DNA of 64,000 nt, taken from the NCBI GenBank assembly GCA_028279245.1, contig JANQOE010000040.1, forward strand, positions 4,121 through 68,120. Direction: 5' to 3'. This DNA is from Alphaproteobacteria bacterium (GTDB lineage Bacteria; Pseudomonadota; Alphaproteobacteria; UBA6615). Position 1 is the stretch's first letter, and every line of letters begins with the position of its first letter. Both the position numbers and the translations under genes were made by a program. This document shows positions 1-64,000 of this stretch, in pieces. Under the pieces are notes generated by a model. It made no database searches. It worked only from the letters and a program-made list of their open reading frames with translations, and was not told the DNA's origin.

Positions 1-176
1 ATCCAAGCGGTAACAAGCACGTAACTACTAAATCCATCAGCGCCAAGCAGCCGCGCCACAATCACCGAAACCGAAAACGACAAGAGCAGGTTTGCGACCG
101 ATATCAAGAACGACCAAGACACCGTCCGGACAAGCCGGCTCTGCAATAGCTGCCAAAAAGTACTCAATAGACGCAA
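1..176 (-). CDS. Polysaccharide biosynthesis flippase (Wzx-like), N-terminal fragment; gene runs off the left edge. Start uncertain (TTG near 174-176 or GTG a few codons downstream)
   Basis: Minus-strand translation of 1-176 is open and hydrophobic (…LISVANLLLSFSVSVIVARLLGADGFSSYVLVTAW…). It matches the conserved N-terminal motif of Wzx/polysaccharide-biosynthesis proteins (…ARLLGpe.FG.Y…). It is not in the ORF track because the gene is truncated by the window. Confidence 0.4.
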   Translation of the reverse strand, partial: MRLLSTFWQLLQSRLVRTVSWSFLISVANLLLSFSVSVIVARLLGADGFSSYVLVTAW

Positions 177-209
177 TCCCTAGAAGCCCGACCCGTTGCC
201 GTCAAATAA

Positions 210-1469
210 CTACCGGTCTCTAGCATTAGTCGATAGAGAAGGTCGCGAATACACTGTCAATAACAGCGCAAACGCAAAACCCGCTGCAACTCTGCCCTGG
301 CCACCAGGAAAAACCGAGAAAAAGATATCCCAGACGTATTGAATCGATAGGAATGTAGTCAAGGCAAGGTATTTGCCGACCCTACGAAAACCAAAGAGCA
401 AGTAGTGTCCTATTACCACCAAAAAGGTAACCCACAGCAATCCACCGGCGACACCCGCCTCTACCCACGAGCCAAACAAAAACGAGTGCGTTGGAATAAG
501 GTCCGAGTTCTCTTTCTGAGGGCTCTCATCTGCTTTAAGAACTAGAAACTGATTTGAGAATCGAACATCGCGCGGCCACGAACCGCGACCCAACAACGGC
601 GACTCAACAATCGCCGGAACGGATACAAGAGATTCGGTCCTTCCCCCTAGCAAGATGCCTTTTCCCAAGGCTAATTGCTGATAGTACTTCGCAGCCGCTT
701 CCTCTCCCAACCGTCCTGTCTCTACTAAGAAACGATATCCATTCAGCCCAACTATGCTTGTAGAGGCTGCGACAGCGATAAGAAGCAACGCTGGAACAGT
801 CGCGAATTTTGCCCGCCCAACAGTGTATTGAACCACTACAATCGCGCCCGCGCAAAGGCAGATTACCGCCTGCGCACGCGCACCCTGGAACAACAAAAAG
901 AATCCAAGAACGATGAAAAACGCGCTGCAAGAATACGACGTACGCGCCACAGGCCAACGAACCGATAGCATCGCTGTTACACCGACTGCCACTGCAAACC
1001 CCAGGCCAAACTTCCAAGGATTCTCGAGCTGGTGAGTACTCGGGAAGAAGGAAATCTTCAGAATTTGACCAGCTGCAATACCGATCCCAAACAGAATAAC
1101 GCGTTCCCGCCTCTCACTAATCAGAAAATACACTGAGGAGAAACTCACTAGAAAGAACGCAATCTTCGCCCAACCTCTAGAGTAATCAGCAAATGCAGTC
1201 TCTCGAACGATATCGGTAACTATCTGCGCCACGAGCCAAAGCAGGACCAACGCACACACAAACCAGAACAGCGGCGCGCGTGGAACAACACGATAATTTA
1301 TCAGCCATACAAGCAAAAGAAGTGCTAGCAGCAATTCCGTAAGGAGAAGCTCTCCGCCAAACCTAAGCGTTATGAAAGATATCGAAGGAACAAACAGACA
1401 CAGAACAGTTATTAGACGGCCAACATCCCTCCCGTCCCCGCGGGACTCACATCGCGACACCCGCCTCAT
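210..1469 (-). CDS. O-antigen ligase/polymerase-like (Wzy/WaaL family) polytopic membrane protein
   Basis: 419 aa with about 10-12 hydrophobic segments and a periplasmic loop, typical of Wzy_C/O-antigen ligase proteins. Lies in a lower-GC glycan cluster next to glycosyltransferases. Confidence 0.5.
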   Translation of the reverse strand: MRRVSRCESRGDGRDVGRLITVLCLFVPSISFITLRFGGELLLTELLLALLLLVWLINYRVVPRAPLFWFVCALVLLWLVAQIVTDIVRETAFADYSRGWAKIAFFLVSFSSVYFLISERRERVILFGIGIAAGQILKISFFPSTHQLENPWKFGLGFAVAVGVTAMLSVRWPVARTSYSCSAFFIVLGFFLLFQGARAQAVICLCAGAIVVVQYTVGRAKFATVPALLLIAVAASTSIVGLNGYRFLVETGRLGEEAAAKYYQQLALGKGILLGGRTESLVSVPAIVESPLLGRGSWPRDVRFSNQFLVLKADESPQKENSDLIPTHSFLFGSWVEAGVAGGLLWVTFLVVIGHYLLFGFRRVGKYLALTTFLSIQYVWDIFFSVFPGGQGRVAAGFAFALLLTVYSRPSLSTNARDR

Positions 1470-2260
1470 GCCGCTCTAAGCCGTTGCCCCAACTCTGGAG
1501 ATGAAGATAACCAGAATTGACGATCATACTTCGACCAAGCATGACAGCCAAACGGCAGGCGACGCCCGTTGAGTTCGTAACAACGCGCCGGCGCTGTTTC
1601 AAACGCGAAATCAAGGGCTACCCTCGCCGGCGCCACCACAAATGTCGGATCGAAGTACGCGGCATGATAGGACCACCAGTGGTCCTCATTCGCATCGAAC
1701 CGATCCGGATGGATCGTCGTCGGCCGCGCCGCTCGTTTCATCGTTACCTTGAGTGGATCCCGAAACAGAGACGTCCTCAGTTTCGGCACTCGACCACTGG
1801 CGCGTGCAGCAGCAAGCGCGGTCAAGGACGACTGAACATTACGAAGGGAAAACCCACCGTTCCCGCAACGGGCCTCACGCAAATTGGTGTCTGGGTTTAT
1901 CCAAGGAGCTCCTACAAAGTCATAGCCCTTTTTGCACCAGAATAAGAGGCGGTCGGACAGCACTAGACAATCTGTTTGGTATATCAATATATGGGTGTAG
2001 TCTTGGAACCGTTCGTAGAACTCACGCCTAAGCATGAGTTTGTTCATCGCACGTGAACTAGAGAAGAATTCCCGCGGAAGATAGTGGACCCGAAAACCGT
2101 CGAGAGGTCTTGTTCCGTCAGGTAAGACGAGGAACCGGTCAAACTTCCCTAGGTGCCTCTCAAGAAGAGCAATCGAGCACGCGCCATCGCTGTCCAACGC
2201 GGTAGTATGCGTGGGAACGACAACCGCTGCCCTGACGTCGACCCCTACCTTTTGGTTCAT
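1466..2260 (-). CDS. DUF5672-like protein (glycosyltransferase-associated, unknown function)
   Basis: 264 aa. Has the GNGGFSLRN motif recalled for the DUF5672 family, which is commonly encoded in polysaccharide loci. Its stop/start overlaps the upstream gene by 4 bp (1466-1469), suggesting translational coupling. Confidence 0.45.
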   Translation of the reverse strand: MNQKVGVDVRAAVVVPTHTTALDSDGACSIALLERHLGKFDRFLVLPDGTRPLDGFRVHYLPREFFSSSRAMNKLMLRREFYERFQDYTHILIYQTDCLVLSDRLLFWCKKGYDFVGAPWINPDTNLREARCGNGGFSLRNVQSSLTALAAARASGRVPKLRTSLFRDPLKVTMKRAARPTTIHPDRFDANEDHWWSYHAAYFDPTFVVAPARVALDFAFETAPARCYELNGRRLPFGCHAWSKYDRQFWLSSSPELGQRLRAA

Positions 2261-2411
2261 GACGTGTCTTCATACCTGATTAGCCACCATCGTAACCCAC
2301 CGCGAAACTCGTCGTTGTGTCTTCGCCGAGTCACCAATCCGTCTGTGACTTTACGGAGTCGCAAATAATACGGGCCTGTCACCTTCATGCCCCACCACGC
2401 ATAATTGCACC

Positions 2412-3227
2412 ATGAAGGTATCGATCGTAACACTCTCCTACAATCAAGCATCCTTCTTGCGGAGAGCTATGTGCTCCGTCCTCGGACAACAGCATGGCGA
2501 GATCGAGTACATTGTCGTCGACCCTGGATCGACGGACGGAAGTCGGGAGATCCTAAAGGAACACGATGGGGTAGTCTCGAAGCTGATTCTTGAGCGTGAC
2601 GAAGGGCCTGCCGATGGCCTCAACACGGGCCTACGTGAGGCAACCGGTGAAATCTTCGGATACTTAAATGCCGACGACGCATACTTGCCTGACGCAATTG
2701 CCCGTGCAGTCACGGCCTTTCGGAACACAGCGGCGGACGTCGTCTATGGAAACGGCTTTGTCGTTGACGAACATGGACGAGTTCAACGCCGGTTCCTATC
2801 GGCGCCCTTCGACTTGGATCATCACATCTGCGGAACAGCGCCAATCATGCAACAATCTACCTTCTTCCGACGTTCTGCACTATTGGAAGTAGGCGGGTTC
2901 AACACGACAAACTCAACATGCTGGGACTCAGAGATTCTTGTAGACTTGGCTTTGGCCAAGAAGGCCTTCGCACGACGAAGGCAATATTGGTCATTATTCA
3001 CAATCCATCCGAACTCGATCTCTGGAAGCGGCCGCCTTAACACGCTTTACGCAACTGATCGTGCCCGGATTTACAAGAAAGCGACGATGCGAGATCCAGT
3101 CCGGAACACCCAAGCGCGCACCATTCTCCATCGAGCGTCCAAGCATCTTCGCGACCCATACAGCGCGGCACTTCGTATTGCTGATGTCTTTCACTACCGA
3201 CCAACCACGGTGGCACCGTGCGCCTAG
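2412..3227 (+). CDS. Family 2 glycosyltransferase (GT-A fold)
   Basis: N-terminus VSIVTLSYNQASFLRRAMCSVLGQ…IVVDPGSTDGS…YLNADD is the classic GT2 signature including the DxD-type NADD motif. Confidence 0.8.
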   Translation: MKVSIVTLSYNQASFLRRAMCSVLGQQHGEIEYIVVDPGSTDGSREILKEHDGVVSKLILERDEGPADGLNTGLREATGEIFGYLNADDAYLPDAIARAVTAFRNTAADVVYGNGFVVDEHGRVQRRFLSAPFDLDHHICGTAPIMQQSTFFRRSALLEVGGFNTTNSTCWDSEILVDLALAKKAFARRRQYWSLFTIHPNSISGSGRLNTLYATDRARIYKKATMRDPVRNTQARTILHRASKHLRDPYSAALRIADVFHYRPTTVAPCA

Positions 3228-4312
3228 CACTTCTATGGTCACAATTCTCCGGCTACATGAATGCCTCATGCGCCGAATGGGCCAGCATTCCGGGAACGAA
3301 ACTTTTTGTGGCGCATCGAGAAGCAGACAACGCGGTTCCGTTTGATCCAGCATTGTTTAGCTGGATCGACTATCAACTACCATATTCTGATAAGCCAAAC
3401 TATCATCAGCTATGCGCATCTCTAGATCAATTCCAACCCGACGTGTTGCTTGTCTCCTCCTGGCACATCAAAGAGTACCGCCGGATCTTGCGGCGCTTTC
3501 GACAGCGCGCTCTACGAGTGTTGTGTATGGATAACCAATGGCACGGTACCTCCAAGCAATGGCTTGGTGTGGCCTCGGCGCCCGTGTACGTCCAAAGGCT
3601 CTACGATGCGGCTTACGTACCAGGTGATAGGCAAGCTGACTTCGCAAGTAGACTATCTTTCAAGGACACGGCTATCTGGCGCGGATTGCTAACCTGCAAC
3701 CATTCGGATTTTGCAGCCGTTTATCATTCCCGGGAAGGAATCCAGAAGCTGCCACGAGCATTTGTCTTTGTCGGCCGGTTTGCCGGGGAGAAGGGCATAG
3801 AGACACTCTTGTCAGGCTATTCGCTTTACCGAGAGAGTACAGACGCACCATGGCCGCTGTTTCTTGCAGGTAGTGGCCCTCTGGACCACGAAGTACGTCA
3901 AACCAAAGGCTGCACTGTTCTTGGTTTCAAGCAACCACAGGACCTCCCCGAAGTTCTGGGAGCGGCAAGCTGTCTTGTACTTCCTAGCCGAAAGGAGCCT
4001 TGGGCCGTCGCGATACATGAGGCAGTGACGGCCGGGTTGGGTGTAATATGCTCAAGCCGATGCGGAGCCGGAGATCACCTTGTCGAGCATGGCACCAACG
4101 GATTCATCATCGATCCTGAAAACCCAAACGCGCTGGCCCACGCCATGGCAGAGTTCTCGGCCCTCAACGAAGACGACTTAAGGACGATTTCCCGGCACAG
4201 TTTCGCGATGTCCCAACAATTCACGCCTCATCGCTGGGCAAAAACGATCTACGAGAACACGGTCGGGTGGAAAGATAGTAGCCGAATCAGCAACGGATTC
4301 AGCCTCAGATAA
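3218..4312 (+). CDS. Family 4 (GT-B) glycosyltransferase
   Basis: C-terminal half FVFVGRFAGEKGIETLL…LPSRKEPWAVAIHEAVTAGLGVICSSRCGAGDHLVEHGTNGFII matches the Glycos_transf_1 EX7E-region pattern. The 10-bp overlap with the GT2 gene means the start could instead be at an internal Met (e.g. MNASC at 3260). Confidence 0.75.
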   Translation: MRLALLWSQFSGYMNASCAEWASIPGTKLFVAHREADNAVPFDPALFSWIDYQLPYSDKPNYHQLCASLDQFQPDVLLVSSWHIKEYRRILRRFRQRALRVLCMDNQWHGTSKQWLGVASAPVYVQRLYDAAYVPGDRQADFASRLSFKDTAIWRGLLTCNHSDFAAVYHSREGIQKLPRAFVFVGRFAGEKGIETLLSGYSLYRESTDAPWPLFLAGSGPLDHEVRQTKGCTVLGFKQPQDLPEVLGAASCLVLPSRKEPWAVAIHEAVTAGLGVICSSRCGAGDHLVEHGTNGFIIDPENPNALAHAMAEFSALNEDDLRTISRHSFAMSQQFTPHRWAKTIYENTVGWKDSSRISNGFSLR

Positions 4313-4364
4313 GACTAGGTCGCAATCTCTCGCTTACATCCACCTCGATCTTCAGGAGCGCTAG

Positions 4365-5186
4365 ATGCTTGTCCTTTGTAGCGGGATGGCAAGGTCCGGA
4401 TCCACACTCCAGTACAATCTAGCGCGATCCTATCTCGAACAAACGGTTGGCGTTGACGAGCACGGTTTTTTTACTCGTGAAGACATCGAGGGGATGTTCT
4501 CAGAACTAAAGACCTGGGCCAGCAGGTCGGATTGGCACATCTTAAAGTGCCACGACCTACCTTCCATCGAACATTGGGATCGTCTTCAAATGCCCGTCTT
4601 CATCCTTTATGTCCACCGCGATTTGAGAGATGTCGGGCCGTCTTTGCAGAGAGTATTTGGCGGAACTGATGAAGAAGTTCTTCACCTTATTGAAGGCGCG
4701 ATTGAGTTCCATGAGCGGGTAACGAACTTGAGCATGACTAAAGTGCAACGATATGATGACCTTTGCATCAACCCGACCCGTTGCCTAAGAGACATATGCC
4801 AGTTCTTGCGGATACCAATTGATCATCAAGTTATATACCGTGTCGCGAAAATGCACTCGCCAGATCGAATGAGACAGATAAGCTCAAAAGTCAGCAAGAC
4901 GAAACTATACGTCGTGAAGCGACTAGCTTGGAAACTAAAAAACCAGCTGGGTATCGGTAGTCTTCTGCGGCGTTACCTTCCAGCATCTTACGTACGAAAC
5001 ATTCGACGGCTCATAGAGGTCCACGATCCGGAGACAATGCTGCACCCAGATCACATCAGATCTGACGTGCCTACCATCACTCAGCAACACAGTCGCCTAT
5101 GTCGGCAAATAGACATACACTTCGCAAGATGGCTAACAGCGAACGGGTATGGAACTCTGATTCGGGCTAGCGCCGACCGAAGCTAG
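4365..5186 (+). CDS. Sulfotransferase-family protein (Stf0-like, P-loop/PAPS-binding type)
   Basis: N-terminal LVLCSGMARSGSTLQYNL resembles the 5'-phosphosulfate-binding loop of Stf0/carbohydrate sulfotransferases. AGGAG lies 7 nt upstream of the ATG. Embedded in a glycan cluster. Confidence 0.55.
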   Translation: MLVLCSGMARSGSTLQYNLARSYLEQTVGVDEHGFFTREDIEGMFSELKTWASRSDWHILKCHDLPSIEHWDRLQMPVFILYVHRDLRDVGPSLQRVFGGTDEEVLHLIEGAIEFHERVTNLSMTKVQRYDDLCINPTRCLRDICQFLRIPIDHQVIYRVAKMHSPDRMRQISSKVSKTKLYVVKRLAWKLKNQLGIGSLLRRYLPASYVRNIRRLIEVHDPETMLHPDHIRSDVPTITQQHSRLCRQIDIHFARWLTANGYGTLIRASADRS

Positions 5187-5944
5187 ATCTTCTCCGCAAC
5201 CGCTATCATCGACTTAGCCATCACTCTAACGCGCCCAACATACAGGACCCGCCTAACACTAAATCCGGCCTCCCCCAGGAGGCGAGTTAGCGTACTCCTC
5301 GACCAGAATTTGATATGCCCGTGAAGCGACAGCGGATGGACGTGTTGGTCAAACCGCCCAGCTGCCGCAATAGCCAAATTCTTTAGATACCCATGATAGG
5401 GCGTCGAAACGATCACCCGTCCACCCTTCTCCGAAAGACCGTACAACGTCGAAGCAAAGCTTTGAGGGTCGTAAAGATGCTCAACAACTTCCAAGCTGAC
5501 GACCACAGGAAATTGCCCATACTGGCGCCCCAATTCGTCGTAACATGAGCCGTTCGCCAGGCGAAGATGAGGGTATGCCCGATTTGCTTCCCGGATACCG
5601 GACACCGAGGGGTCGACACCCGTTACTGTATGGCCCTTTAGGCTAAGGGCATTGGCGATAGCACCATTTCCGCAACCAAGATCGAATATGCGCGTTGGTC
5701 TCTCTATCAATTTGAAAAGCGCCGGCAGGAGATATTGGTGGCTACGCGCGGGTTGAGCATTCTCGTGAACGAATGTGGAATCGTCTGCAACAACACTTGC
5801 CAGTGCCATGAGCGCGCCCCTGCTGTGGTCGAGTAACTTGACTACACAGAGGTTGTGCAGCGTCATGTCAAACCAGAGTCGACCCACCCCCCCACCCTCC
5901 GCCCCAACCCACCCCGCTGCTAACTTCTGCGCCACACCAATCAC
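5183..5944 (-). CDS. Class I SAM-dependent methyltransferase
   Basis: Motif [15 protein letters not shown] followed by an acidic motif II and [10 protein letters not shown] (motif III). The real start may be the internal Met (MTLHNL…, about 5866), which would leave a divergent promoter gap to gmd. Overlaps the sulfotransferase stop by 4 bp on the opposite strand. Confidence 0.75.
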
Positions 5945-5956
5945 AGCGGGGACAAC

Positions 5957-7030
5957 ATGGGCACGCAGCAGGTCGCGTTAATCTCCGGCATCACCGGGCA
6001 GGACGGGTCGTATCTGGCGCGGCTCTTGCTCGACAAAGGCTACCAGGTGCACGGCATCAAACGCCGCTCCTCCTCGTTCAACACCGGCCGCGTCGACGAC
6101 CTGTATCTCGACCCCCACGCCGGCAACGCCCGCTTCCACCTGCACTATGGCGACATGACCGACGCCACCAACCTCATCCGCCTGGTGCAGGAGGTGCAGC
6201 CGACGGAGATCTACAACCTCGCCGCCCAAAGCCACGTTCAGGTCAGCTTCGAAACAGCCGAATACACCGCCAACGCCGACGGCCTCGGCACCCTGCGCCT
6301 GCTCGAGGCCCTGCGCATCCTCAAGCTGGAAGACAAGACCCGCTTCTATCAGGCCTCCACATCTGAGCTATTCGGCGATTCCCCCCCGCCGCAGAGCGAG
6401 GCCACGCCCTTCCGCCCGCGCAGCCCCTACGCCGCGGCCAAGCTCTACGCCTATTGGATCACCACCAACTACCGCCAGGCCTATGGGATGCACGCCTCCA
6501 ACGGCATCCTGTTCAACCACGAAAGCCCGATGCGCGGCGAAACCTTCGTTACGCGGAAGATTACCCGTGCCGTCGCCGCTATCGAGGCCGGCCTCCAGGA
6601 CAAGCTCTACCTCGGCAACCTCGATGCAAAGCGCGACTGGGGCCACGCCCGTGACTACGTCGAAGGCATGTGGCGCATCCTCCAACAGGACACGCCGGAG
6701 GATTATGTACTCGCCACCGGCCGCGCCTATACTGTGCGGGCATTTGTCGAGCGCGCCTTCGGGCAGGTTGGCATCGACATCGGCTGGGAAGGGAAAGCCA
6801 TGCACGAAAAGGGCATCGACACCCGCACCGACCAGATCCTGGTTGAGGTCGACCCGCGCTACTTCCGCCCGACCGAGGTCGACTACCTGCTCGGCGACCC
6901 AAGCAAGGCTGAGAGCCAGCTCGGTTGGCGCCACGAATCGACCCTGGATGACATGGTGGCGGAGATGGTGGCCTACGACCGCATGCAACTCGTGCCCCAG
7001 CCCAACGCCACCCTGGCCCAGCGCATCTGA
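5957..7030 (+). CDS. gmd: GDP-mannose 4,6-dehydratase
   Basis: [37 protein letters not shown]…, with near-identity to the canonical Gmd N-terminus and SDR catalytic region ([10 protein letters not shown]). Length 357 aa. Confidence 0.93.
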
Positions 7031-7033
7031 GCG

Positions 7034-8005
7034 GTGACGAGCCCCGACACCTTCTGGCAGGGCCGGCGTGTCTGGGTCGCCGGCCACCGGGGCATGGTCG
7101 GCAGCGCCCTCGTCCGCCGGCTCAAGCGCGAGGACGCCGAAATCCTCACCCTCCCCCGCAACCAGGCGGACCTTCGCCGGCAACAGGAAACCGAGGACTG
7201 GATTGCCGAAACCCGCCCCGACACGGTGTTCCTGGCGGCCGCCAAGGTCGGCGGCATCCACGCCAACAACACCTACCCGGCCGACTTCCTCTACGACAAT
7301 CTGCAAATCGAAACGAACATCATCGAGGCCGCCCGCCGCACCGGCGTGCGCAAGCTCGTCTTCCTCGGCTCGTCCTGCATCTACCCGAAACACGCCGACC
7401 AGCCGATCCGCGAGGACGCCCTGCTCACCGGTCCCCTCGAACCGACGAACCAATGGTACGCCATCGCTAAGATAGCCGGCCTCATGCTGTGCCAAGCCTA
7501 CCGCCGTCAGCACGGGTGCGACTTCATCGCCGCCATGCCAACCAACCTCTACGGACCGGGCGACAATTTCGATCTGCAGAACAGCCACGTCATGGCCGCC
7601 CTAATCCGCAAGGTCTATGAAGCCAAGGAAGCCGACCGCAACACTGTCGAAGTCTGGGGCACCGGCAATGTCCGCCGTGAGTTCCTACACGTCGATGACT
7701 GCGCCGACGCCCTCGTCTTCCTCGCCCAACACTACGCCGATGAGCCGCCGGTGAATGTCGGCACCGGCCAGGACATCACCATCAGAGAGCTCGCCGAACT
7801 CATCGCCGATGTCGTCGGCTACACCGGCCACCCAACCTTTGACACGTCGAAACCCGACGGCACGCCGCGCAAACAGCTCGACGTCAGTCGCCTCACAACC
7901 TTAGGCTGGCAGGCAAAGACCACTATCCGCGACGGCATCGCCCAAACGGTCAAATGGTATCAGCAAAATCGCGAAGCCGTGACAGTGGGTCGGGTCGTCG
8001 CGTAA
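7034..8005 (+). CDS. fcl: GDP-L-fucose synthase (GDP-4-keto-6-deoxymannose 3,5-epimerase/4-reductase)
   Basis: RVWVAGHRGMVGSALVRRL…LAAAKVGGIHANNTYPADF…SSCIYPK… is the diagnostic Fcl/WcaG signature. Follows gmd immediately with a 3-bp gap. Confidence 0.9.
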   Translation: MTSPDTFWQGRRVWVAGHRGMVGSALVRRLKREDAEILTLPRNQADLRRQQETEDWIAETRPDTVFLAAAKVGGIHANNTYPADFLYDNLQIETNIIEAARRTGVRKLVFLGSSCIYPKHADQPIREDALLTGPLEPTNQWYAIAKIAGLMLCQAYRRQHGCDFIAAMPTNLYGPGDNFDLQNSHVMAALIRKVYEAKEADRNTVEVWGTGNVRREFLHVDDCADALVFLAQHYADEPPVNVGTGQDITIRELAELIADVVGYTGHPTFDTSKPDGTPRKQLDVSRLTTLGWQAKTTIRDGIAQTVKWYQQNREAVTVGRVVA

Positions 8006-9109
8006 CTAAGCCGCACGCGTCGCGGCAGCCCTGCCCGTGCCGTATTTCTCGTAGTAGTACTGGATCGTTTCCCGCAGGACGTCCTCCAACGGCATCCGCG
8101 GCTCCCAGTCAAGCAGTCGCCGCGCCTTTGCGAGGTTCGGCATTCGCCGATCGCAATCCTCATATCCGGCGCCATAGAACTCCGCACTCGAAACGTCTTC
8201 GATCGGATGTGAGAGATACGAAACGTCCCCGGACACGTCGGCATAAATCCGTCGCATCATTTCTGCCAACCCGCGCATCGTGACTTCGTTGGCTCGGTTG
8301 CCCACGTTGAACACCTGGTTCGCGGCGGCATCGGGACGCTCTAGCATCCGCACGACCGCATCAACCGCATCGCCGATCCCCACAATGGTTCGCCGCGCCA
8401 TACCGCCGTCCACCAACAGCATCGGCTTTCGGTCCAGCAACGCTCCAAGGAAGCAAGCCAGCACCCGCGGCACCCCCTCCCCTTCGCGCCCTGGAATAAA
8501 ATCCATGCGCGGCCCAAAGAAATTAAGAGGCCTGACTATCGTAAAGCGCAGCCCGAATTCGGTATGACAGCCGTAGATGAAACGCTCCATCAACTGCTTG
8601 GCGCAAGCATAACTCCAACGTTGGTTCGCCACCGGCCCCATGACCAGCGGCGTTGAGTCTTCCTCAAGTTCATAAAGCGCCGGGTCCGCATAGCTGTCGT
8701 CGACATAGCTCGACAGCGTCCGTCCGTAGACCTCGCTCGTCGAAAAATGCAGCAGCCAAGTTCCCGCCTCAGCGCACATCTGCACCGTATCGAACGTATC
8801 GACGAAGTTCGCTCGGATCACCTGGTACGGCTGCGTGTTGTATTGAGCGGGATTGCAGATAGCCGCTAGGTTGAGCACCACGTCTGCATCCCGCAGGTCG
8901 ACCAACAACTGGCCCCGAGCGTCCGGGTCGGCGCAGTTCCCTTGGCGAAAGATGAAGTTTGGGTGGTGAACAAGGTGACGGATCTTCCGGTCGTCCAGAT
9001 CCCACCCGACGACTTCGGGCACGGCGCCACCAAGCCCGTGCGACAAACAACGATCCAGCAGGTGGCTCCCGACGAAACCACCGCAACCCAGCATGACAAT
9101 TCGCCTCAT
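8006..9109 (-). CDS. NAD-dependent epimerase/dehydratase, ArnA C-terminal-domain-like (UDP-glucuronate decarboxylase-like)
   Basis: MRRIVMLGCGGFVGSHL Rossmann start, FSTSEVYG and FTIVRPLNFFGPRMD motifs parallel the ArnA decarboxylase domain. I chose the internal ATG at 9109 (GGAG RBS-like 8 nt upstream); the ORF extends to 9205 without a Rossmann-compatible N-terminus. Confidence 0.7.
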   Translation of the reverse strand: MRRIVMLGCGGFVGSHLLDRCLSHGLGGAVPEVVGWDLDDRKIRHLVHHPNFIFRQGNCADPDARGQLLVDLRDADVVLNLAAICNPAQYNTQPYQVIRANFVDTFDTVQMCAEAGTWLLHFSTSEVYGRTLSSYVDDSYADPALYELEEDSTPLVMGPVANQRWSYACAKQLMERFIYGCHTEFGLRFTIVRPLNFFGPRMDFIPGREGEGVPRVLACFLGALLDRKPMLLVDGGMARRTIVGIGDAVDAVVRMLERPDAAANQVFNVGNRANEVTMRGLAEMMRRIYADVSGDVSYLSHPIEDVSSAEFYGAGYEDCDRRMPNLAKARRLLDWEPRMPLEDVLRETIQYYYEKYGTGRAAATRAA

Positions 9110-9272
9110 ACGCGAAACTCCAACATCATCAACACGGAGGTAAGCATGCTGACTCTGCGCGGCCCCGTGACTTTTGTGAGTCGGTTCGGTCCACGGATAA
9201 GGCAATGAAGCGGCACGACGACACGGTCACACCGGGAAACCCGTGCGGGTAAGTCATGATTCCACGGCTTGG

Positions 9273-10553
9273 CTATTCCGCGGCCAAGCACATGCCGCCG
9301 GTGTCAGCCCTAGGCGCCTTGTGGAACACCCCGTCTTTCATGATTCCGATCAGCCTATCCGCGTCCTGCAGTATGGAGATGTCGGCAATCGGATCGCCGC
9401 GAACCAACAGCAGATCCGCCAGCGCACCCTCTCGGATCTGGCCAACGTCCATCACCATCAGCGCGGCGCCACCCGCTGTCCCCGCCTGGATCGCCTCCAT
9501 CGGCGAGTAGCCCAGCAAATTGACGAAATGCGCAAGGTCGCGAGCATTTGTCCCCTGCGGGTTGCAGAACAAGCCATAGTCGCCGCCCGGCAGGACCCGG
9601 ATGCCACGCTCCCGCATCGCCCGCACACCGTTTATGAGTGACGCCAGTTCGGATTCCAGGCTAGCCTGGGTCGCGTCGTCGTGCTCGACCCCAAAGTCTT
9701 GCGCTTCGTGGACCAAGGTATAGGGAAAGCCGACTGTCGGCGCGACGAATACCCGGTCTTTTGCCGCCTCGAGCATGTCCAGCGCTTCCTCATCGCACAG
9801 TGCAGCGTGGTAGATCACATCGACGCCGTGACGAACACACATCTTCACGCTCCCGGCACTCGTCGCATGGGCGGCAACCTTCTTGCCTCGCGCCCGCGCC
9901 ACTTGCACAACCGCGGCAAGCTCTTCATCCGTAATAACGGTTGCGTCCGGCCCGGCGCCCCACTCCTCAAAGCCCCTATCCCCGGACACGTTCACCTTGA
10001 ACGTATCGACGCCGTTTCTGGCGGCCCGCCGGCATGCTTGCCGAAACGCATCCGGTGAATCGCATGTCACGGTGAAACGCACCGCCTCCGGCAGTGTCAT
10101 ATAGTCAGTGTCGAGATCGCCGAGATTTCCGGAGGGAGTCATCTCTTGCGTTGCCGCCCGTAGGCGCGGTCCCGGAATGCGCCCGGCGTTGATGGCGTTC
10201 CGAACCACCACGTCAAGCCGCGGTTTCGCCGCGGCGGCGCTGAAGCAACTGGTGAACCCCTGATCTAGCAGGAGCTTCGCGTTCTCGATCGTCGCCAGCA
10301 GATGCTCCTCGACTGGCAATCGCACGGACTCGAAGAGGTCCTGCATGTTCGTGAAGCTAAGGTGGGCATGCGCTTCCACCAGGCCCGGCATCAACGCGCA
10401 TCCACCACCGCAGACGACCTCAGCGCCTTCGACACTGATCCGATCCGGCGATTTCGCCACACGCTTTATGCGAGCCCCTTCAACAAGAACGTCTCCCGTG
10501 TACGGTGCCCTCGCCACGCCGTCGATGATCTCCGCGTCCGCGAACAGGTACAT
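9273..10553 (-). CDS. Amidohydrolase-family metal-dependent hydrolase
   Basis: VEAHAHLSF metal-binding HxH motif near the N-terminus, then H…H…D pattern of the amidohydrolase superfamily. Start at 10553 is supported by a strong GGAGGAGG RBS 6-13 nt upstream; the ORF extends to 10592. Confidence 0.75.
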   Translation of the reverse strand: MYLFADAEIIDGVARAPYTGDVLVEGARIKRVAKSPDRISVEGAEVVCGGGCALMPGLVEAHAHLSFTNMQDLFESVRLPVEEHLLATIENAKLLLDQGFTSCFSAAAAKPRLDVVVRNAINAGRIPGPRLRAATQEMTPSGNLGDLDTDYMTLPEAVRFTVTCDSPDAFRQACRRAARNGVDTFKVNVSGDRGFEEWGAGPDATVITDEELAAVVQVARARGKKVAAHATSAGSVKMCVRHGVDVIYHAALCDEEALDMLEAAKDRVFVAPTVGFPYTLVHEAQDFGVEHDDATQASLESELASLINGVRAMRERGIRVLPGGDYGLFCNPQGTNARDLAHFVNLLGYSPMEAIQAGTAGGAALMVMDVGQIREGALADLLLVRGDPIADISILQDADRLIGIMKDGVFHKAPRADTGGMCLAAE

Positions 10554-10734
10554 ATTGCGACCTCCTCCGATGCTTCGGGCCACTATACGCACGGCTACAG
10601 TCAGTGTCCCCGCCCCACGCTACGGACCGGTTCGATAACCATGTCCTATCAAACTGGCTACCAAATCCGTATTGCCGGCAGCAGTACAAACCTCACCTCC
10701 CCACATATGGTTAATGCTAGTCGGGAGGCAGCGA

Positions 10735-10890
10735 ATGGCACGGGTTTCAGCCAAACAGCAACCAAACGTCGAATCGCCGACCAACATCGACAAAGAAGCC
10801 ATCAGCGCGTTTCGCGGCCTAACCATTGCGATACCCGCAGGCGGTGTACTGTGGGCAGGAATCATCGGCGCCGCGATCGCGGTTCTGTAA
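10735..10890 (+). CDS. Hypothetical small membrane protein (51 aa, C-terminal TM helix)
   Basis: ATG at 10735 preceded by GGGAGG with 6-nt spacing. Product MARVSAKQQPNVESPTNIDKEAISAFRGLTIAIPAGGVLWAGIIGAAIAVL ends in a hydrophobic helix. Lies in an otherwise empty 1.3-kb gap. Confidence 0.3.
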   Translation: MARVSAKQQPNVESPTNIDKEAISAFRGLTIAIPAGGVLWAGIIGAAIAVL

Positions 10891-11312
10891 TATGCGCACT
10901 CCGTATGTGAGCGCAGTCCGGCAGACGTTGATAAGTTTTGGCGACTACGACACCTGGTCGGTCAACGTCGCACGGACCCCGATAACTCGGGTTCGGTCTG
11001 CGTCGGCGATCTGGCCCAAAGTAGCTGTCGCTGTTTATGAACCGGCGCGGGTTTTCAATGATCGACCTGACCCGCGAACAAAGAGATTTCAGGGATATAG
11101 GGGCTATAACCCGTCCGCCTCAGTAACCGTACCAGCTCCAACCCATTCATCGGCTCCATCTTGAAGTCTGAAATGAGAAGATCAGGCTCATGCTGTTCAA
11201 GAAGACGGAATGTGTTGATCCCGTCCATCGCTTCATAGACCCGTTCTGCCGAGCGCGTAGGTCGGCTAGTCTATACCCCGATTCGCAACCATCCGCTGCT
11301 TGCGCCGGTGAC

Positions 11313-11579
11313 TCAGGCGTAATCGCAGGTGCCGCTGTCGGATGACCCCGTGTCATTCGACGCGCTTCCATCTGTCAAGATGTCGTTGGCCTGAATAGTT
11401 CCCGGCAACCACGCATCACTACCCTGCCAGCAGTCCAGGCTGCGGACAGTGCTCTGCGGCACCAACGCCGAATGCTCTGCCGAAGACGCCCCGACGTTTA
11501 CGGGCAAGCCAGCCACTATCAACACAATGGCTGCGGTTCGAATCACACCCATCTCGCGTCCAACCTCGTCACGGTACAA
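11313..11579 (-). CDS. Hypothetical small secreted protein
   Basis: TTG start; residues 10-36 (MGVIRTAAIVLIVAGLPVNVGASSAEH) form a Sec-type signal peptide; Ser/Asp-rich mature part with two Cys. No homolog recognised. Confidence 0.25.
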   Translation of the reverse strand: MYRDEVGREMGVIRTAAIVLIVAGLPVNVGASSAEHSALVPQSTVRSLDCWQGSDAWLPGTIQANDILTDGSASNDTGSSDSGTCDYA

Positions 11580-11881
11580 GCCTATACATAAAGATCGATC
11601 GTTCGGCCAACCGTCGGATCGGCGGGAACACGTGCCGTCGGATCAACCCTCTCGACCGCGTCTGCGGCCGCCTTATCGCGAGCCCAGGATCTAGGGTAAG
11701 GAGTGGACACCGCGTCCGCGCGAACCCGACCTATAAGGGCGGTAACCGGGGGGATCGCAGTTCCACGCATTCGGGCGTCCACTCCTCTAGGGGCTGAGGT
11801 CCTAGTATCAGGAAGATGGTCTCAACAACCCGAACAAGCCATTTGGTTCTGCCACCCCGGTTGATAGGGATGACCTATCTG

Positions 11882-12799
11882 CTAGGCCTCGACGGAAACG
11901 CATTCGACCTGCCGGAGTGAACGTCGGATGAGTTCGGCCAGCGTCTCGAACTCGTCATGCCGAACCGATTGCTTCCGCCACACCATGCCCACCAGCCGAA
12001 ACGGCGTCCGCCCCTTTATCAGCCGCGCCGCAACCTGCTTGTCCTCCATCACCTCTGACGTCACATACAGCGCCGGCATGAACGAAATGCCCATGCCCAT
12101 CCCGACCATCTGCCGGATGGTGTCCAAGCTGGTTCCTTCGTAGTCGAGCGCCAGGTTGGCGTCATATTGATCGCAAAGATCGCGAACTTGCTCGTACAAC
12201 CGATGCCCTTTTTCCAGGGCCAGGATCGACTCGCCACGAAGGTCCGATCGATCCACCTCCCCCCGTTGCGCAAGGGAATGATCGCTCGGCGCGACGATCC
12301 ATAGCGGTTCCCGAAACAAGCGCACGGTCACCAGATCCGCACCCTTTAGCGGTAGCGGGAACAGCAATAGATCCAGCGAGCCGTCATCGAGCCGGTCCAG
12401 GAGTTCTTGTGGCATGCCCTCGCGAACGTACAGCTTGAGCGCCGGGTAGCTCTCGTGCAGCTCCGGCAATATGTGGGGCAATAGATAAGGGCCCAGCGTC
12501 GGTAACACCCCCAATCGTACAGTGCCACCAAGTAGGCTCTGTCCCTGTTTGGCCAAGCTGACGATGTCGTTCACATCGCGCAGCACCCGCTGGGCGCGCA
12601 CCGTGATCTCTTTGCCGATCGGGGTCAGGACAACCCGGGCGCGGCTCCGCTCGACGAGTTGCACACCTAGCCGCTCCTCCAGTTCTCGCAGTTGGCCGCT
12701 AAGCGTCGGCTGGGTGACATTCGTCTTCTCTGCCGCCCGCCGAAAATGCAGCGTCTCCGCAATAGCCACCAAGTACCGCAGCTGCTGGAGTGAGACCAT
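11882..12799 (-). CDS. LysR-family transcriptional regulator (OxyR-like N-terminus)
   Basis: LQQLRYLVAIAETLHFRRAAEKTNVTQPTLSGQLRELEERLGVQLVER is the LysR HTH and closely parallels OxyR. Only one of the two OxyR redox cysteines is apparent, so I do not call it oxyR. Confidence 0.85.
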   Translation of the reverse strand: MVSLQQLRYLVAIAETLHFRRAAEKTNVTQPTLSGQLRELEERLGVQLVERSRARVVLTPIGKEITVRAQRVLRDVNDIVSLAKQGQSLLGGTVRLGVLPTLGPYLLPHILPELHESYPALKLYVREGMPQELLDRLDDGSLDLLLFPLPLKGADLVTVRLFREPLWIVAPSDHSLAQRGEVDRSDLRGESILALEKGHRLYEQVRDLCDQYDANLALDYEGTSLDTIRQMVGMGMGISFMPALYVTSEVMEDKQVAARLIKGRTPFRLVGMVWRKQSVRHDEFETLAELIRRSLRQVECVSVEA

Positions 12800-13027
12800 C
12801 CCCTATCCCCGGCCAAGAGATTCTAACTATCAAATCGATCATCAAGTTTGATCCCATCAATCGAAAATCAAGCGAAAACCGCCCGACAACGGTGCTGATA
12901 GGCGAGGACTATCACCAGGTTAGCGATCTCCGATTAGCCGCAACCGATTGATTTCCCTACTTGATCGAAAGGAAACCGGCCAAACGGGGCACCGGTTCAG
13001 CAAGCCAAACCAGGGTAGCCAGGGATC

Positions 13028-13981
13028 TTGGGGATCGAAATCGCGCAAGCGGCAGTCGGACTATCGATCGGTCTAGTGCTGCTCTATTTCGGAGGTGAGT
13101 GCATCGTTGGCAGCGGTGTGCGGATCGCTCGGCGGATCCGCATCTCTCCGCTCCTGGTTGGCATTGCGATCGTTGGCTTTGGCACTTCATTGCCCGAAAT
13201 GATCGTTTCCTTGAATGCCCATATGAACGGCTACACCGACGTCGCGGTTGGCAATGTCGTCGGCAGCAACATCACGAATATCCTGCTCGTCCTCGGCGCC
13301 GCCGCTATCATCGCCTCCCTGCCATGCTCTAGGACAGCGCTCCGAACCGACGGCCTCGCACTGGTAGCCGCCACCGCGTTATTCGTCGGACTTGCCCTGT
13401 TCAATCTGCTGACCTTCGTCAGCGGCGCGTTACTCGTCACCATCCTCGCCGCCTTCCTGTTCTTTCGCTACACGTCCGAGCGTCGGCTCCAAACCGAAGC
13501 CGGACCGGATCCCGAACCCAATTCCACGGGCGGCCCCGCCTGGAAAGACTGGCTTTGGATCGGTGCCGCAATGGTAATGCTCTGGGCTGGATCGAAACTG
13601 TTCGTGATCGGCGCGGTCAAAAGCGGCGGTTTGATGGGCCTCAGCGGCGCCGTGATCGGCCTGACCATCGTCGCCCTCGGCACCTCCCTGCCCGAATTGG
13701 CGACAACCGTAGTCGCCGCCTTCCGCAACGAAACCGACCTGCTGCTCGGCAACATATTCGGCAGCAACATGTTCAACATCCTATGCATCGTCGGGATCGC
13801 TGCGCTGGTCGCCCCTATCCCCGTCGCCAGCCGCTTCATCACCGTGGACCTGTGGGTCCTGGCCGCGGTCACCGCGTGCCTGCTCTTCTTCGGCTACACC
13901 GGCCGCCGCCTCGCACGCTGGGAGGGCGCCACGTTGTTCGGCGGATACTTGGTGTACCTGTCGGTGACGCCGATTATATAA
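13028..13981 (+). CDS. Ca2+/cation antiporter (CaCA family, YrbG-like sodium/calcium exchanger)
   Basis: Two alpha-repeat signatures GFGTSLPEMIVSLNA and ALGTSLPELATTVVAA separated by a hydrophilic loop; about 10 TM segments. Confidence 0.85.
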   Translation: MGIEIAQAAVGLSIGLVLLYFGGECIVGSGVRIARRIRISPLLVGIAIVGFGTSLPEMIVSLNAHMNGYTDVAVGNVVGSNITNILLVLGAAAIIASLPCSRTALRTDGLALVAATALFVGLALFNLLTFVSGALLVTILAAFLFFRYTSERRLQTEAGPDPEPNSTGGPAWKDWLWIGAAMVMLWAGSKLFVIGAVKSGGLMGLSGAVIGLTIVALGTSLPELATTVVAAFRNETDLLLGNIFGSNMFNILCIVGIAALVAPIPVASRFITVDLWVLAAVTACLLFFGYTGRRLARWEGATLFGGYLVYLSVTPII

Positions 13982-14035: not shown

Positions 14036-14914
14036 TCATTCGTGAAATATCTGACTCAGCGCCGCCTGCCGTATCAACGGGTGCATAAATCGATAGGTTA
14101 CAGCTGACTCATCTTGCTGCGGCTTACTAGCAAACCTGCCAAGATCGGCACCCAGTCGAAAAACACTACGAAGAAGACGGGACCGAATAATCGGATCGTA
14201 GTATGCGTAGACCGCACGATACAAATCCTGATCCTCCGGGTGTTCGTCATAAGGTATTTTGAATGAGAGCGGCTCGAACTCCTGCGTACATATAACCTCA
14301 CCCTGGTCAATGCCCGGCGCCATATAGATGCAGGTAGCCGCTGGCCTTTTCCGGACCAACATTGACCATAGCAATCCGTCCGCACCCCTGACATCCGGCA
14401 AGACCCCAGGGTGAATGTGCAGATACCGCGCACCTGCGATACTCAGCAGGGATTGCGGCACAATACCTCCACCCGTGTACAAGACCACAGCTGGTGCGGC
14501 TCCTGACACTACATCGATCAGTTTCGAATCCCCCAAACCGCTGACCATGACTCGACGTACGCGTCCGGCATAGTCCTCATACTTCCACCGCTTGTTATAC
14601 ATCTCGTCATGGAAGTCAGAGCAAAAGTCCGCCGCATCACAGCAGTCATGCGTCATCCTTGCCACCAGGCCCGCGAATTCCTTACGCAGTTGCCGCCCCC
14701 AATAGTTCAGCTGAATGTCCTGCATCCTCTCGGCATAAGCCATACGCATCTTCTTGGGCCACCAACGACCAACCTGCTTGTCGTTTGCCGGGGTTGCCTC
14801 GTAGACCATAAGTATGAGAGTGGCCGGTCGCAGTCCCATTCGCCGGAGACAGGTAAGGTAGGCTCGGCCAATCGGGCCTTCATGCTGGAGCACGACAAGT
14901 GGCGCGGTTGTCAT
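14036..14914 (-). CDS. Formyltransferase-family protein (Fmt/PurN/ArnA-N-like fold), possibly non-canonical
   Basis: YLHIHPGVLPDVRGADGLLWSML…MAPGIDQGEV aligns to the formyl_trans_N core (N-x-H-P-S-L-LP-x-x-RG…W). The catalytic Asn two residues before the His appears replaced by His (LHIH). Confidence 0.5.
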   Translation of the reverse strand: MTTAPLVVLQHEGPIGRAYLTCLRRMGLRPATLILMVYEATPANDKQVGRWWPKKMRMAYAERMQDIQLNYWGRQLRKEFAGLVARMTHDCCDAADFCSDFHDEMYNKRWKYEDYAGRVRRVMVSGLGDSKLIDVVSGAAPAVVLYTGGGIVPQSLLSIAGARYLHIHPGVLPDVRGADGLLWSMLVRKRPAATCIYMAPGIDQGEVICTQEFEPLSFKIPYDEHPEDQDLYRAVYAYYDPIIRSRLLRSVFRLGADLGRFASKPQQDESAVTYRFMHPLIRQAALSQIFHE

Positions 14915-42241: not shown

Positions 42242-42318
<77 letters not shown>

Positions 42319-63467: not shown

Positions 63468-64000
63468 CTAGCCTGTGGGCTTTAGGCCACCTGCCGTTTC
63501 GATGAAGCCGATGATGTCGGCCAGCCCGTCGCCCTTCTTCAAGTTGCTGAAGATGAACGGCCGGTCACCACGCATCTTGCGGGCATCGCGATCCATCACG
63601 TCGAGACTGGCACCGACCATTGGCGCCAGGTCCGTCTTGTTGATCACCAGCAGATCCGACCGCGTGATCCCGGGGCCACCCTTGCGCGGGATCTTGTCGC
63701 CGGCCGACACGTCGATCACGTAGATCGTGATATCCGCCAGTTCCGGCGAGAAGGTCGCCGCGAGATTGTCGCCGCCGGACTCAATGAAGATGATCTCCAG
63801 GCCCAGATGCATCTCCTGCATGTCGGCGACCGCGGCGAGGTTGATCGAGGCGTCTTCACGAATGGCCGTGTGCGGACAGCCCCCGGTTTCGACACCCATG
63901 ATGCGGTTCTCTTCCAACGCGCCGGAGCGGATCAGGAACTGCGCATCCTCCTCGGTATAGATGTCGTTGGTGATGGCCGCGACGTTGTAGGTCTCGCGCA
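63468..64000 (-). CDS. ureG: Urease accessory GTPase UreG (5'-truncated by window end)
   Basis: …[44 protein letters not shown]…ESGGDNL…[33 protein letters not shown] is canonical UreG. The reading frame continues past 64000. Confidence 0.9.

Follow-up and report, generated by a model that had tools for sequence, protein, structure and literature searches.

Only a few bacterial polysaccharide sulfotransferases are understood (PMC11641403, PMC8205485). This work concerns a surface-polysaccharide locus at the left end of a 64,000-nucleotide stretch of contig JANQOE010000040.1 (assembly GCA_028279245.1, positions 4,121 to 68,120 of the forward strand) from a bacterium of the alphaproteobacterial lineage UBA6615. 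The whole stretch is called the window, and coordinates below refer to it. Positions 1 to 9205 hold a putative sulfotransferase gene together with a methyltransferase gene, the GDP-L-fucose genes gmd and fcl, glycosyltransferase (GT) genes, components of a Wzx/Wzy-dependent pathway and a homologue of the bacterial UDP-apiose/UDP-xylose synthases (bUAS). Of the characterised systems, the synechan (xss) cluster of Synechocystis sp. PCC 6803 comes closest, and a second parallel is the Vibrio sp. KMM 8419 locus for a sulfated capsule. The synechan cluster is of the Wzx/Wzy type and encodes a flippase, a polymerase, a co-polymerase and several glycosyltransferases. It has two dedicated sulfotransferases of the PF00685, PF13469 or PF03567 kind, whose presumed substrate is the cytoplasmic repeat unit, and its outer-membrane exporter is encoded elsewhere (PMC8205485). 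In the Vibrio locus the sulfotransferase genes also lie among genes for sugar nucleotides and glycosyltransferases. Its authors deduced from this adjacency that the sugar of the neighbouring pathway is sulfated, and they considered horizontal transfer (PMC11641403). In 2017 the count of known bacterial apiose synthases stood at about eight, and by the account of the same papers the bacterial glycans that bear apiose had yet to be identified (PMC5607165, PMC6193724). The enzymology of the bUAS clade has been described, its genes sit in no conserved operon, and apiose was found in methanol-soluble material (PMC5607165).

The UBA6615 locus shares with the synechan cluster its Wzx/Wzy type, its several glycosyltransferases and a dedicated sulfotransferase. 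Unlike this locus, the synechan cluster lacks gmd-fcl, a methyltransferase and an apiose synthase, and its polymer contains rhamnose, mannose, galactose and glucose but no fucose. The Vibrio capsule relies on an ABC transporter for export, and its locus carries its own cysDNC genes for 3'-phosphoadenosine-5'-phosphosulfate (PAPS), whereas no PAPS-synthesis genes were seen in this window; no fucose, methyltransferase or apiose is involved in that capsule. The locus is of an ordinary kind among surface-polysaccharide clusters, and what is unusual is that enzymes for fucose, sulfate and methyl groups are combined with a rare plant-type apiose enzyme. The Wzx/Wzy machinery, the GDP-L-fucose genes, the sulfotransferase and the methyltransferase make a fucose-containing, sulfated and methylated glycan the natural reading, as a preliminary description made from the sequence had already proposed. 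We assign a probability of about 0.7 to the view that the locus makes such a polymer. A bolder proposal is that the Wzx/Wzy polysaccharide carries apiose and/or xylose together with O-methylated, sulfated fucose, and that sulfotransferases linked to gmd-fcl are fucose or fucoside sulfotransferases; taken as a whole this is unlikely. If true, this would be the first genetic locus tying bacterial UDP-apiose synthesis to a defined polymer, and it would give a role to a gmd-fcl-linked sulfotransferase family that extends from Planctomycetota to Asgard archaea. The set of apiose with O-methylated and sulfated fucose recalls the side chains of plant rhamnogalacturonan-II and the sulfated fucans of algae.

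Positions 1 to 9205 form the right-hand part (9.2 kb) of a Wzx/Wzy-dependent heteropolysaccharide locus that spans at least 13.3 kb. Contig L001 (run SRR20820731) is identical to window positions 1-6185 over all 6185 nt and runs 4125 bp further left. It adds the full Wzx, one GT2, one GT4 and the N-terminal 218 amino acids (aa) of a Wzz-domain co-polymerase. Gene content was assigned by Pfam and NCBIfam profile matches, which confirmed the preliminary calls for the wzx 5' end, the Wzy-like protein, DUF5672, GT2, GT4, the methyltransferase, gmd and fcl. The features are as follows.

1..122, minus strand: 5' end of wzx, a MOP-family flippase (Polysacc_synt 42.2 bits against a cut-off of 28.2, on the full L001 gene of 428 aa)
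210..1469, minus strand: Wzy-like polytopic membrane protein, 419 aa (Wzy_C 30.5 bits, just below the cut-off of 31.7)
1466..2260, minus strand: DUF5672 protein, 264 aa (PF18922, 176 bits)
2412..3227, plus strand: GT2 glycosyltransferase, 271 aa (Glycos_transf_2, 99 bits)
3218..4312, plus strand: GT4 glycosyltransferase, 364 aa (Glycos_transf_1, 87.6 bits; 10-nt overlap with the GT2 stop)
4365..5186, plus strand: predicted PAPS-type sulfotransferase, 273 aa, soluble (family motifs, fold and PF00685 homologues)
5183..5866, minus strand: class I S-adenosylmethionine (SAM)-dependent methyltransferase (Methyltransf_23, 77 bits)
5957..7030, plus strand: gmd, GDP-mannose 4,6-dehydratase (TIGR01472, 580.4 bits against a cut-off of 415)
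7034..8005, plus strand: fcl, GDP-L-fucose synthase (NF047922, 516.2 bits against an equivalog cut-off of 500)
8006..9109, minus strand: bUAS homologue, 367 aa, tail-to-tail with fcl and with zero spacer
1..5880, no strand: low-GC block (52.5% GC, third-position GC 0.55), which continues for about 2 kb past the left window edge on L001

In the proposed pathway as many as five glycosyltransferases (two of GT4, two of GT2 and the DUF5672 protein) would assemble a repeat-unit oligosaccharide on undecaprenyl phosphate on the cytoplasmic side of the membrane. Gmd and Fcl would supply GDP-L-fucose, and the adjacent bUAS homologue would form UDP-apiose and UDP-xylose from UDP-glucuronate (UDP-GlcA). 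The cytoplasmic unit would receive sulfate from PAPS through the soluble sulfotransferase and an O-methyl group through the SAM-dependent methyltransferase, with fucose or a fucosylated unit as the likely target of both. The decorated unit would then be flipped by Wzx and polymerised by the Wzy-like protein, with the co-polymerase setting chain length. What the analysis shows is the identity of the genes, the motifs and fold of the sulfotransferase, the place of the last gene product in the bUAS clade and the break in composition; in this scheme we only infer the acceptor sugars, the order of the steps and the entry of the bUAS product into this polymer.

Sulfation would depend on the protein encoded at 4365..5186. 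It scores below the Pfam gathering thresholds (Sulfotransfer_3 20.0 against 27, Sulfotransfer_1 18.1 against 22), and a PDB sequence search with it returned nothing significant. Among 5.8 billion proteins searched, the exact sequence occurred once, and the next relatives were 25-34% identical, mostly with a precomputed PF00685 assignment. Motifs were checked in an alignment of 26 family sequences. The GMxRSGSTLQYN loop (R10, G12, S13, T14), R85, D86, R88 and S93 are invariant in this alignment and all are kept in the window protein, whose 5'-phosphosulfate-binding loop reads GMARSGSTLQYN and follows the xRSGST pattern. K61 and H63 (K-x-H) are nearly invariant and also present, and R85 and S93 form an Arg...Ser pair eight residues apart. 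We take these elements to correspond to the loop that binds the 5'-phosphosulfate, the catalytic Lys/His pair and the 3'-phosphate-binding Arg...Ser pair known from PAPS sulfotransferases such as the cytosolic SULT enzymes. The AlphaFold model has a pLDDT (predicted local distance difference test) score of 86.1 and a pTM (predicted template modelling) score of 0.82, and its top 50 Foldseek matches in the PDB are all sulfotransferases: Teg12 (9e-7), then StaL and SULT1/2, with TM-scores of 0.4-0.55. Judged by these motifs and by the modelled fold, the protein is a genuine PAPS sulfotransferase and not an unrelated P-loop protein, and the preliminary call is borne out.

The C-terminal GAxGxWR motif is kept by most members of the alignment and is missing in the window protein, which has SDVPTITQQHSRL there with a 4-residue gap. 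This loss weighs against sulfation, as do the sub-threshold Pfam scores and the lack of PAPS-synthesis genes in the window. These points would suit a protein that is inactive, or whose acceptor is something other than a glycan, so that the glycan stays unsulfated. Against this, GAxGxWR is also missing in other family members (P0002 and P0011), the 5'-phosphosulfate-binding loop, the K-x-H pair and the 3'-phosphate-binding residues are intact, and the predicted fold is confidently that of a sulfotransferase. The gene also appears to lie in one operon with the GT2 and GT4 genes (spacings of -10 and 53 nt along GT2, GT4 and sulfotransferase). We consider an inactive or diverted enzyme improbable.

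The preliminary description had likened the gene set to the decoration of rhizobial Nod factors and K-antigens, with NodH and NoeE as points of comparison. Rhizobial NodH, NoeE, NoeI and NodZ resemble the present set in chemistry only: sulfate and O-methyl groups on a fucosylated glycan. Their acceptor is a chitooligosaccharide, in contrast to the Wzx/Wzy repeat unit predicted here. When the sulfotransferase was compared by tblastn with 72,556 plasmids (E<=10), the only match was a weak one to a cyanobacterial sulfotransferase from Pseudanabaena (E 1e-2), in a plasmid set whose inclusion of the xss plasmid was unchecked. The set contains pSymA (nodH) and pNGR234a (noeE), neither of which was matched, and the protein has no Pfam family match to Stf0. 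Nod factors of strain NGR234 carry fucose, sulfate and methyl decoration, and this parallel in chemistry is what favours genes that decorate a lipo-chitooligosaccharide or a rhizobial K-antigen as those four enzymes do. Homology is absent, no nod genes occur in the window, and Wzx, the Wzy-like protein and the co-polymerase indicate a polymer. A Nod-type role is scarcely credible and was in effect rejected; the likeness is chemical only.

The sulfotransferase family was surveyed with one genome per species, a set that does not include the window genome, which gave 79 sulfotransferase loci. Relatives occur in polysaccharide clusters. The best one, from Kordiimonas aestuarii, is 33% identical, and its gene stands among two flippase and GT4 genes and adjoins a weakly FkbM-like methyltransferase gene. 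An Fcl (>=36% identity) is encoded within 10 kb in 13 of the 79 loci. In six loci fcl and the sulfotransferase gene lie on one strand: Planctomycetota (L004), Algibacter (L007), Promethearchaeota (L010), Teredinibacter (L018), Spirochaetaceae (L061) and Verrucomicrobiae (L066). gmd precedes in five of these six, the verrucomicrobial locus being the exception, and fcl directly adjoins the sulfotransferase gene in the Asgard archaeon (L010) and the spirochaete (L061). A nearby Fcl was found for 5 of the 10 closest relatives versus 8 of the 69 others (Fisher p = 0.009, for a split chosen post hoc and with no general polysaccharide-locus baseline). The pairing of fcl with a sulfotransferase gene is a recurrent, phylogenetically scattered and uncharacterised module. 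It is suggestive of a family that may work on fucose-containing glycans, and the family is a possible enzyme source for making sulfated fucose-containing polysaccharides.

Both enzymes of GDP-L-fucose synthesis score above curated equivalog cut-offs, in line with the earlier gmd-fcl call, and the SAM-dependent methyltransferase also stands on its Methyltransf_23 match. The methyltransferase open reading frame (ORF) extends to 5944; because homologues align from residue ~40, the gene probably starts at 5866 or 5809. A 406-aa ORF that runs antisense to gmd and fcl (6368-7588, minus strand) was rejected as a high-GC artefact; it has no family support and would mislead longest-ORF calling. The best annotated homologue of the methyltransferase (53% identical) is encoded inside a Wzx and gmd-fcl cluster on plasmid p2 of Novosphingobium sp. 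ES2-1 (NZ_CP063447.1, 46482-71120; L088). Like the window locus this cluster has a flippase and GT4 genes, and it shares the order methyltransferase (53% identity to this locus), GT2 (35%), GT2 (34%), gmd (63%) and fcl (55%), the 34% homologue of the window GT2 (2412..3227) adjoining gmd-fcl. It is also low in GC (46-54%) within a higher-GC alphaproteobacterial replicon. Unlike the window locus it lacks a sulfotransferase, a DUF5672 protein and a bUAS, and it adjoins an IS5 transposase gene on a conjugative plasmid. The cluster is uncharacterised, so it supplies context rather than function. The shared methyltransferase-GT2-GT2-gmd-fcl arrangement supports a fucose-related module in the present locus, and one of the GT2 genes may encode the fucosyltransferase.

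The assembly machinery agrees with a polymer. The wzx start was called at position 122 (GTG), a TTG at 165 being the alternative, and the window holds the first 41-55 codons; Wzx has at least ten hydrophobic segments. The Wzy-like protein has at least nine, with a large loop at 240-336, and is presumed to be the repeat-unit polymerase. Its Wzy_C match slightly under the Pfam cut-off weighs against this assignment. The Pfam Wzy_C family spans ligases, polymerases and PglL-type transferases, and NCBIfam gives no match, both of which would also fit an O-antigen ligase (WaaL) or an O-oligosaccharyltransferase whose product is a short lipid- or protein-linked glycan. The gene lies between wzx and glycosyltransferase genes, with a co-polymerase gene in the same locus. 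This is the canonical context of a polymerase, and a ligase in its place has little probability. The co-polymerase fragment has a Wzz domain (54.3 bits), and of the NCBIfam models it matches TIGR01005 (exopolysaccharide transport family) best, at 68 bits. The ExoP/GumC type of this left-flank chain-length fragment favours an exopolysaccharide or a capsule over an O-antigen as the product of the locus. Hence the Wzx/Wzy machinery of the preliminary description stands, and its O-antigen type is disfavoured.

The DUF5672 protein belongs to a family with almost no literature. It is predicted to be soluble, and its nearest homologues are at most 48% identical. The best Foldseek matches of its AlphaFold model (pLDDT 86.6) are chondroitin synthase, glycogenin (GT8), GTA/GTB (GT6) and UGGT (GT24), with E-values from 4e-7 to 3e-5. 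From the model it is most likely a glycosyltransferase of the GT-A fold, and would be the fifth of the locus. The GT2 on the left flank (L001) has a weak PF13704 match, in which it resembles XpXylT of X. pisi. Some gaps in the gene set count against the reading as a fucosylated polymer. An initiating phosphoglycosyl transferase and an outer-membrane exporter were not found among the 13 genes of L001 and window 1-9205, in a locus that is cut at the left. No recognised fucosyltransferase (GT10, GT11, GT23 or similar) occurs in the 13.3 kb, which hold only the generic GT2, GT4 and DUF5672 proteins, and it is possible that a GT2 or GT4 enzyme is the fucosyltransferase. Similarly, no GT90 apiosyltransferase was seen in the 13.3 kb of this left-cut locus.

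The gene at 8006-9109 had been described as an ArnA-C-like decarboxylase. The mechanical ORF reaches 9205 and is probably over-extended, the gene call being 367 aa. In the PDB the protein matches Arabidopsis UAXS1 (6h0n) with E 1.5e-103 and 350 bits, against ~185 bits for ArnA and ~84 bits for human UXS. The NCBIfam U4kpxs model gives 259.6, under its cut-off of 294. Over ~290 residues the protein is 62% identical to XpUAS and 58% to GrUAS, which are themselves 64-65% identical; these identities are approximate, both sequences having been rebuilt from the machine-read S1 Fig alignment of PMC5607165. The stretches GCGGFVGSHLLDR, NLAAICNPAQYNT and FSTSEVYGRT are common to the window protein, GrUAS and XpUAS. 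NLAAIC, FSTSE and YACAK align, with the Cys, the Thr/Tyr/Lys triad of SDR (short-chain dehydrogenase/reductase) enzymes and the Glu. The Cys of the NLAAICNPAQYNT motif (NLAAIC) aligns with AtUAXS Cys100, which is tied to ring opening and is replaced by Ala in ArnA and UXS (PMC12820599, Table 3). At position 140 the protein has Ser, which GrUAS, XpUAS and YpUAS share. A library of 1.84 billion cluster representatives holds just 123 sequences at E<=1e-30 to this query. By sequence the protein is placed in the rare bUAS clade, and its function is likely UDP-apiose synthesis. The ArnA reading, with lipid A aminoarabinose as the product, was rejected: ArnB, ArnC and ArnT are absent and the protein is far closer to UAS enzymes. 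The preliminary assignment was thus mistaken, and it had not foreseen this sugar.

Some 5 kb from the bUAS gene, 14036-14914 (minus strand, 292 aa) has a weak, sub-cut-off Formyl_trans_N match (23 bits). As half of a split ArnA it was rejected, with no ArnB, ArnC or ArnT. In the representative library, P0305 (746 aa) has a bUAS-like domain (53% identical) at 383-742 fused to an unrecognised N-terminal half, unlike the ArnA fusion.

The characterised enzymes GrUAS, XpUAS and YpUAS and the apiose operon of X. pisi provide the comparison for this gene (PMC5607165, PMC6193724). As in X. pisi, the window bUAS gene adjoins glycan-building genes. The X. pisi operon has a GT90 apiosyltransferase and XpXylT, in contrast to the window, where none such was identified beside the bUAS gene, and a Wzx/Wzy locus with gmd-fcl is not described as the context of the characterised enzymes. 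A bUAS clade member beside what looks like a full set of genes for building and decorating a polymer is a testable candidate for an apiose-bearing bacterial polymer.

Membership of the bUAS gene in this pathway is the weakest step of the reading. In its favour, the gene abuts fcl with no spacer and, like the rest of the locus, is absent beside the amidohydrolase gene in two relatives (L082 and L092, described below). Glycosyltransferase genes also adjoin bUAS genes in X. pisi and in some of the metagenome loci. Additionally, a nucleotide-sugar dehydrogenase of the UDP-glucose dehydrogenase type at 33054-34364 (TIGR03026, 389 bits) could supply UDP-GlcA. Several observations weigh against membership. 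The gene is convergent with fcl and co-directional with the upstream core-like amidohydrolase gene, from which it lies 164 bp downstream. Its codon composition is core-like, with a third-position GC of 0.72, close to the amidohydrolase gene (0.74) and not to gmd (0.86), fcl (0.83) or the six genes of the low-GC block (0.55). In 21 metagenome loci with bUAS homologues 48-62% identical, the neighbours include GT2 (4), GT4 (3), GT90 (2) and phage integrase (3) genes, with gmd/fcl in 0, and across 50 metagenome loci bUAS shows no conserved synteny with gmd-fcl or the glycosyltransferases of the block. Given such mixed neighbours elsewhere, with gmd and fcl missing, it is adjacency that links the gene to the polymer. 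These findings, together with the missing conserved operon and the methanol-soluble apiose of the earlier study (PMC5607165), would fit a locus that ends at fcl and a bUAS that is independent of the Wzx/Wzy pathway, possibly co-transcribed with the amidohydrolase gene and making UDP-apiose/UDP-xylose for another glycan or a small apioside. Such independence has somewhat less than even odds in our estimate. That apiose or xylose enters the same polymer is close to an even bet.

The locus is also marked by its base composition. Mean GC of the window is 59.2%. Positions 1-5950 have 52.7%, the minimum among all 6-kb stretches in the window (stretch mean 59.3%, standard deviation 2.5%), compared with 62.6% for 5951-9205 and 59.7% for 9206-64000. 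The best single change-point in 1-12000 falls at ~5880 (52.5% to the left against 61.6% to the right, t ~10), and in 200-bp steps GC rises from 0.53-0.56 to 0.62-0.66 across 5700-5900. The low-GC stretch reaches ~2 kb leftward on L001, over wzx and the GT2 gene, and beyond this GC is 62-69%. The break falls between the methyltransferase gene and gmd, so that gmd, fcl and the bUAS gene lie outside the low-GC block. The preliminary description had named 1-9205 a lower-GC island and put the first ~6 kb at roughly 50% GC against ~65% for the rest. The GC plot bears out a real and sharp break at ~5880; its size is 7-10 points and not 15, and the low-GC unit is confined to 1-5880, with gmd, fcl and the last gene core-like in GC. 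Third-position GC is 0.55 in the six island genes, 0.80 in gmd, fcl and the last gene together, 0.63 in the genes of 14-42 kb and 0.79 in core-like genes. GC is uneven elsewhere in the window as well (57.3% at 14-42 kb, 62.6% at 42-64 kb), and in codon use the genes of the 14-42 kb locus are nearest to the island genes (distance 0.087).

To the right of the locus, 9273-13981 holds a core-like trio of genes for an amidohydrolase, a LysR regulator and a Na/Ca exchanger, sandwiched between two polysaccharide loci. The trio is syntenic with the ENA contig L082 (68-76% nucleotide identity; amidohydrolase 82% identical in protein). L082 has unrelated genes at the site of this locus and at the site of the 14-42 kb polysaccharide locus. 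A second relative, L092 (amidohydrolase 80%), is also without the locus, and a 74% relative shows no synteny. Within the trio, 10592-11882 (1.3 kb) has no long ORF, and an ion-channel gene stands there in L082. The methyltransferase beside the amidohydrolase in L082 was considered as an orthologue of the island methyltransferase, which would have made the latter a core gene, and was rejected at 25% identity only. The island proteins are at most 53% identical to any match found. Megablast of the island and of 42-64 kb against plasmids gave matches to gmd, ureG and tRNA only, at 71-94% identity. Among named organisms the nearest relative of a flanking gene is from a Geminicoccaceae metagenome-assembled genome (73%). 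On TARA contigs a 51-aa protein that clusters with the Wzy-like protein was taken to be spurious, those contigs carrying tiny ORFs only.

The composition, the absence from relatives and the lack of close homologues of the island proteins fit acquisition or cassette exchange. Some points weigh against it. The relatives used for synteny are just ~80-82% identical in protein, no integrase or transposase was found among the genes scanned, no tRNA lies at the borders, and the only flanking repeats are short and at chance level, as are promoters and terminators. An Rfam scan of the window found a single RNA gene, the tRNA at 42.2 kb. Low GC in the variable part is the usual pattern of surface-polysaccharide loci, and many O-antigen and capsule loci keep their AT-rich variable genes through selection or repeated allelic exchange. 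The block may likewise belong to a long-resident, diversifying locus whose AT-rich genes were kept in this way, with no recent transfer. Its borders without integrase, transposase, tRNA or direct repeats agree with this, and so do the core-like gmd and fcl, the likewise GC3-poor 14-42 kb locus that is nearest in codon use, and the low-GC Novosphingobium cluster, which points to a general habit of such loci. The sharp break at ~5880, the island proteins with at most 53% identity to anything found and the absence of the locus from the syntenic place in L082 speak against long residence, which we regard as possible but not favoured. Horizontal acquisition of the locus, as the preliminary description had it, remains plausible but unproven: atypical composition and codon use and the two relatives without the locus support it, and the lack of mobility genes, tRNA and repeats and the core-like gmd-fcl do not. 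The low-GC block beside core-like gmd-fcl is a mosaic typical of surface-polysaccharide loci and would fit a variable part that was acquired or exchanged. In other respects the region is a routine compositional mosaic of such loci.

Positions 14000-42200 hold a second, separate polysaccharide locus, with a third-position GC of ~0.63. It encodes a ParA-like ATPase, a 558-aa GT2 (Glyco_tranf_2_3), a protein with PilZ and HlyD_3 domains (Alg44-like architecture), a 129-aa cupin similar to the C-terminus of mannose-6-phosphate isomerase, a NosD/beta-helix protein and a 1551-aa Sel1-repeat protein (641 bits). Further genes encode Glyphos_transf, NTP_transf_3 and Peptidase_C26 proteins, the nucleotide-sugar dehydrogenase, a 1054-aa PEP-utilising protein, a LuxR-type regulator, a Sel1/AlgK-like protein and a PLD-like protein. 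Two neighbouring proteins are each 603 aa long; the first has CBM96/beta-helix matches and the second has no Pfam match. The locus looks like a synthase-dependent exopolysaccharide system controlled by cyclic di-GMP, of the alginate or Pel kind; its GT2 and PilZ proteins match no NCBIfam model. A tRNA-Arg(TCT) gene at 42242-42318 (minus strand) lies exactly where third-position GC shifts from ~0.63 to ~0.79, and no integrase gene was seen beside it. At ~63500-64000 ureG is cut off by the right window edge, with its 5' part inside; the nearest plasmid matches of ureG are from Methylovirgula and Paracoccus, at ~78% nucleotide identity.

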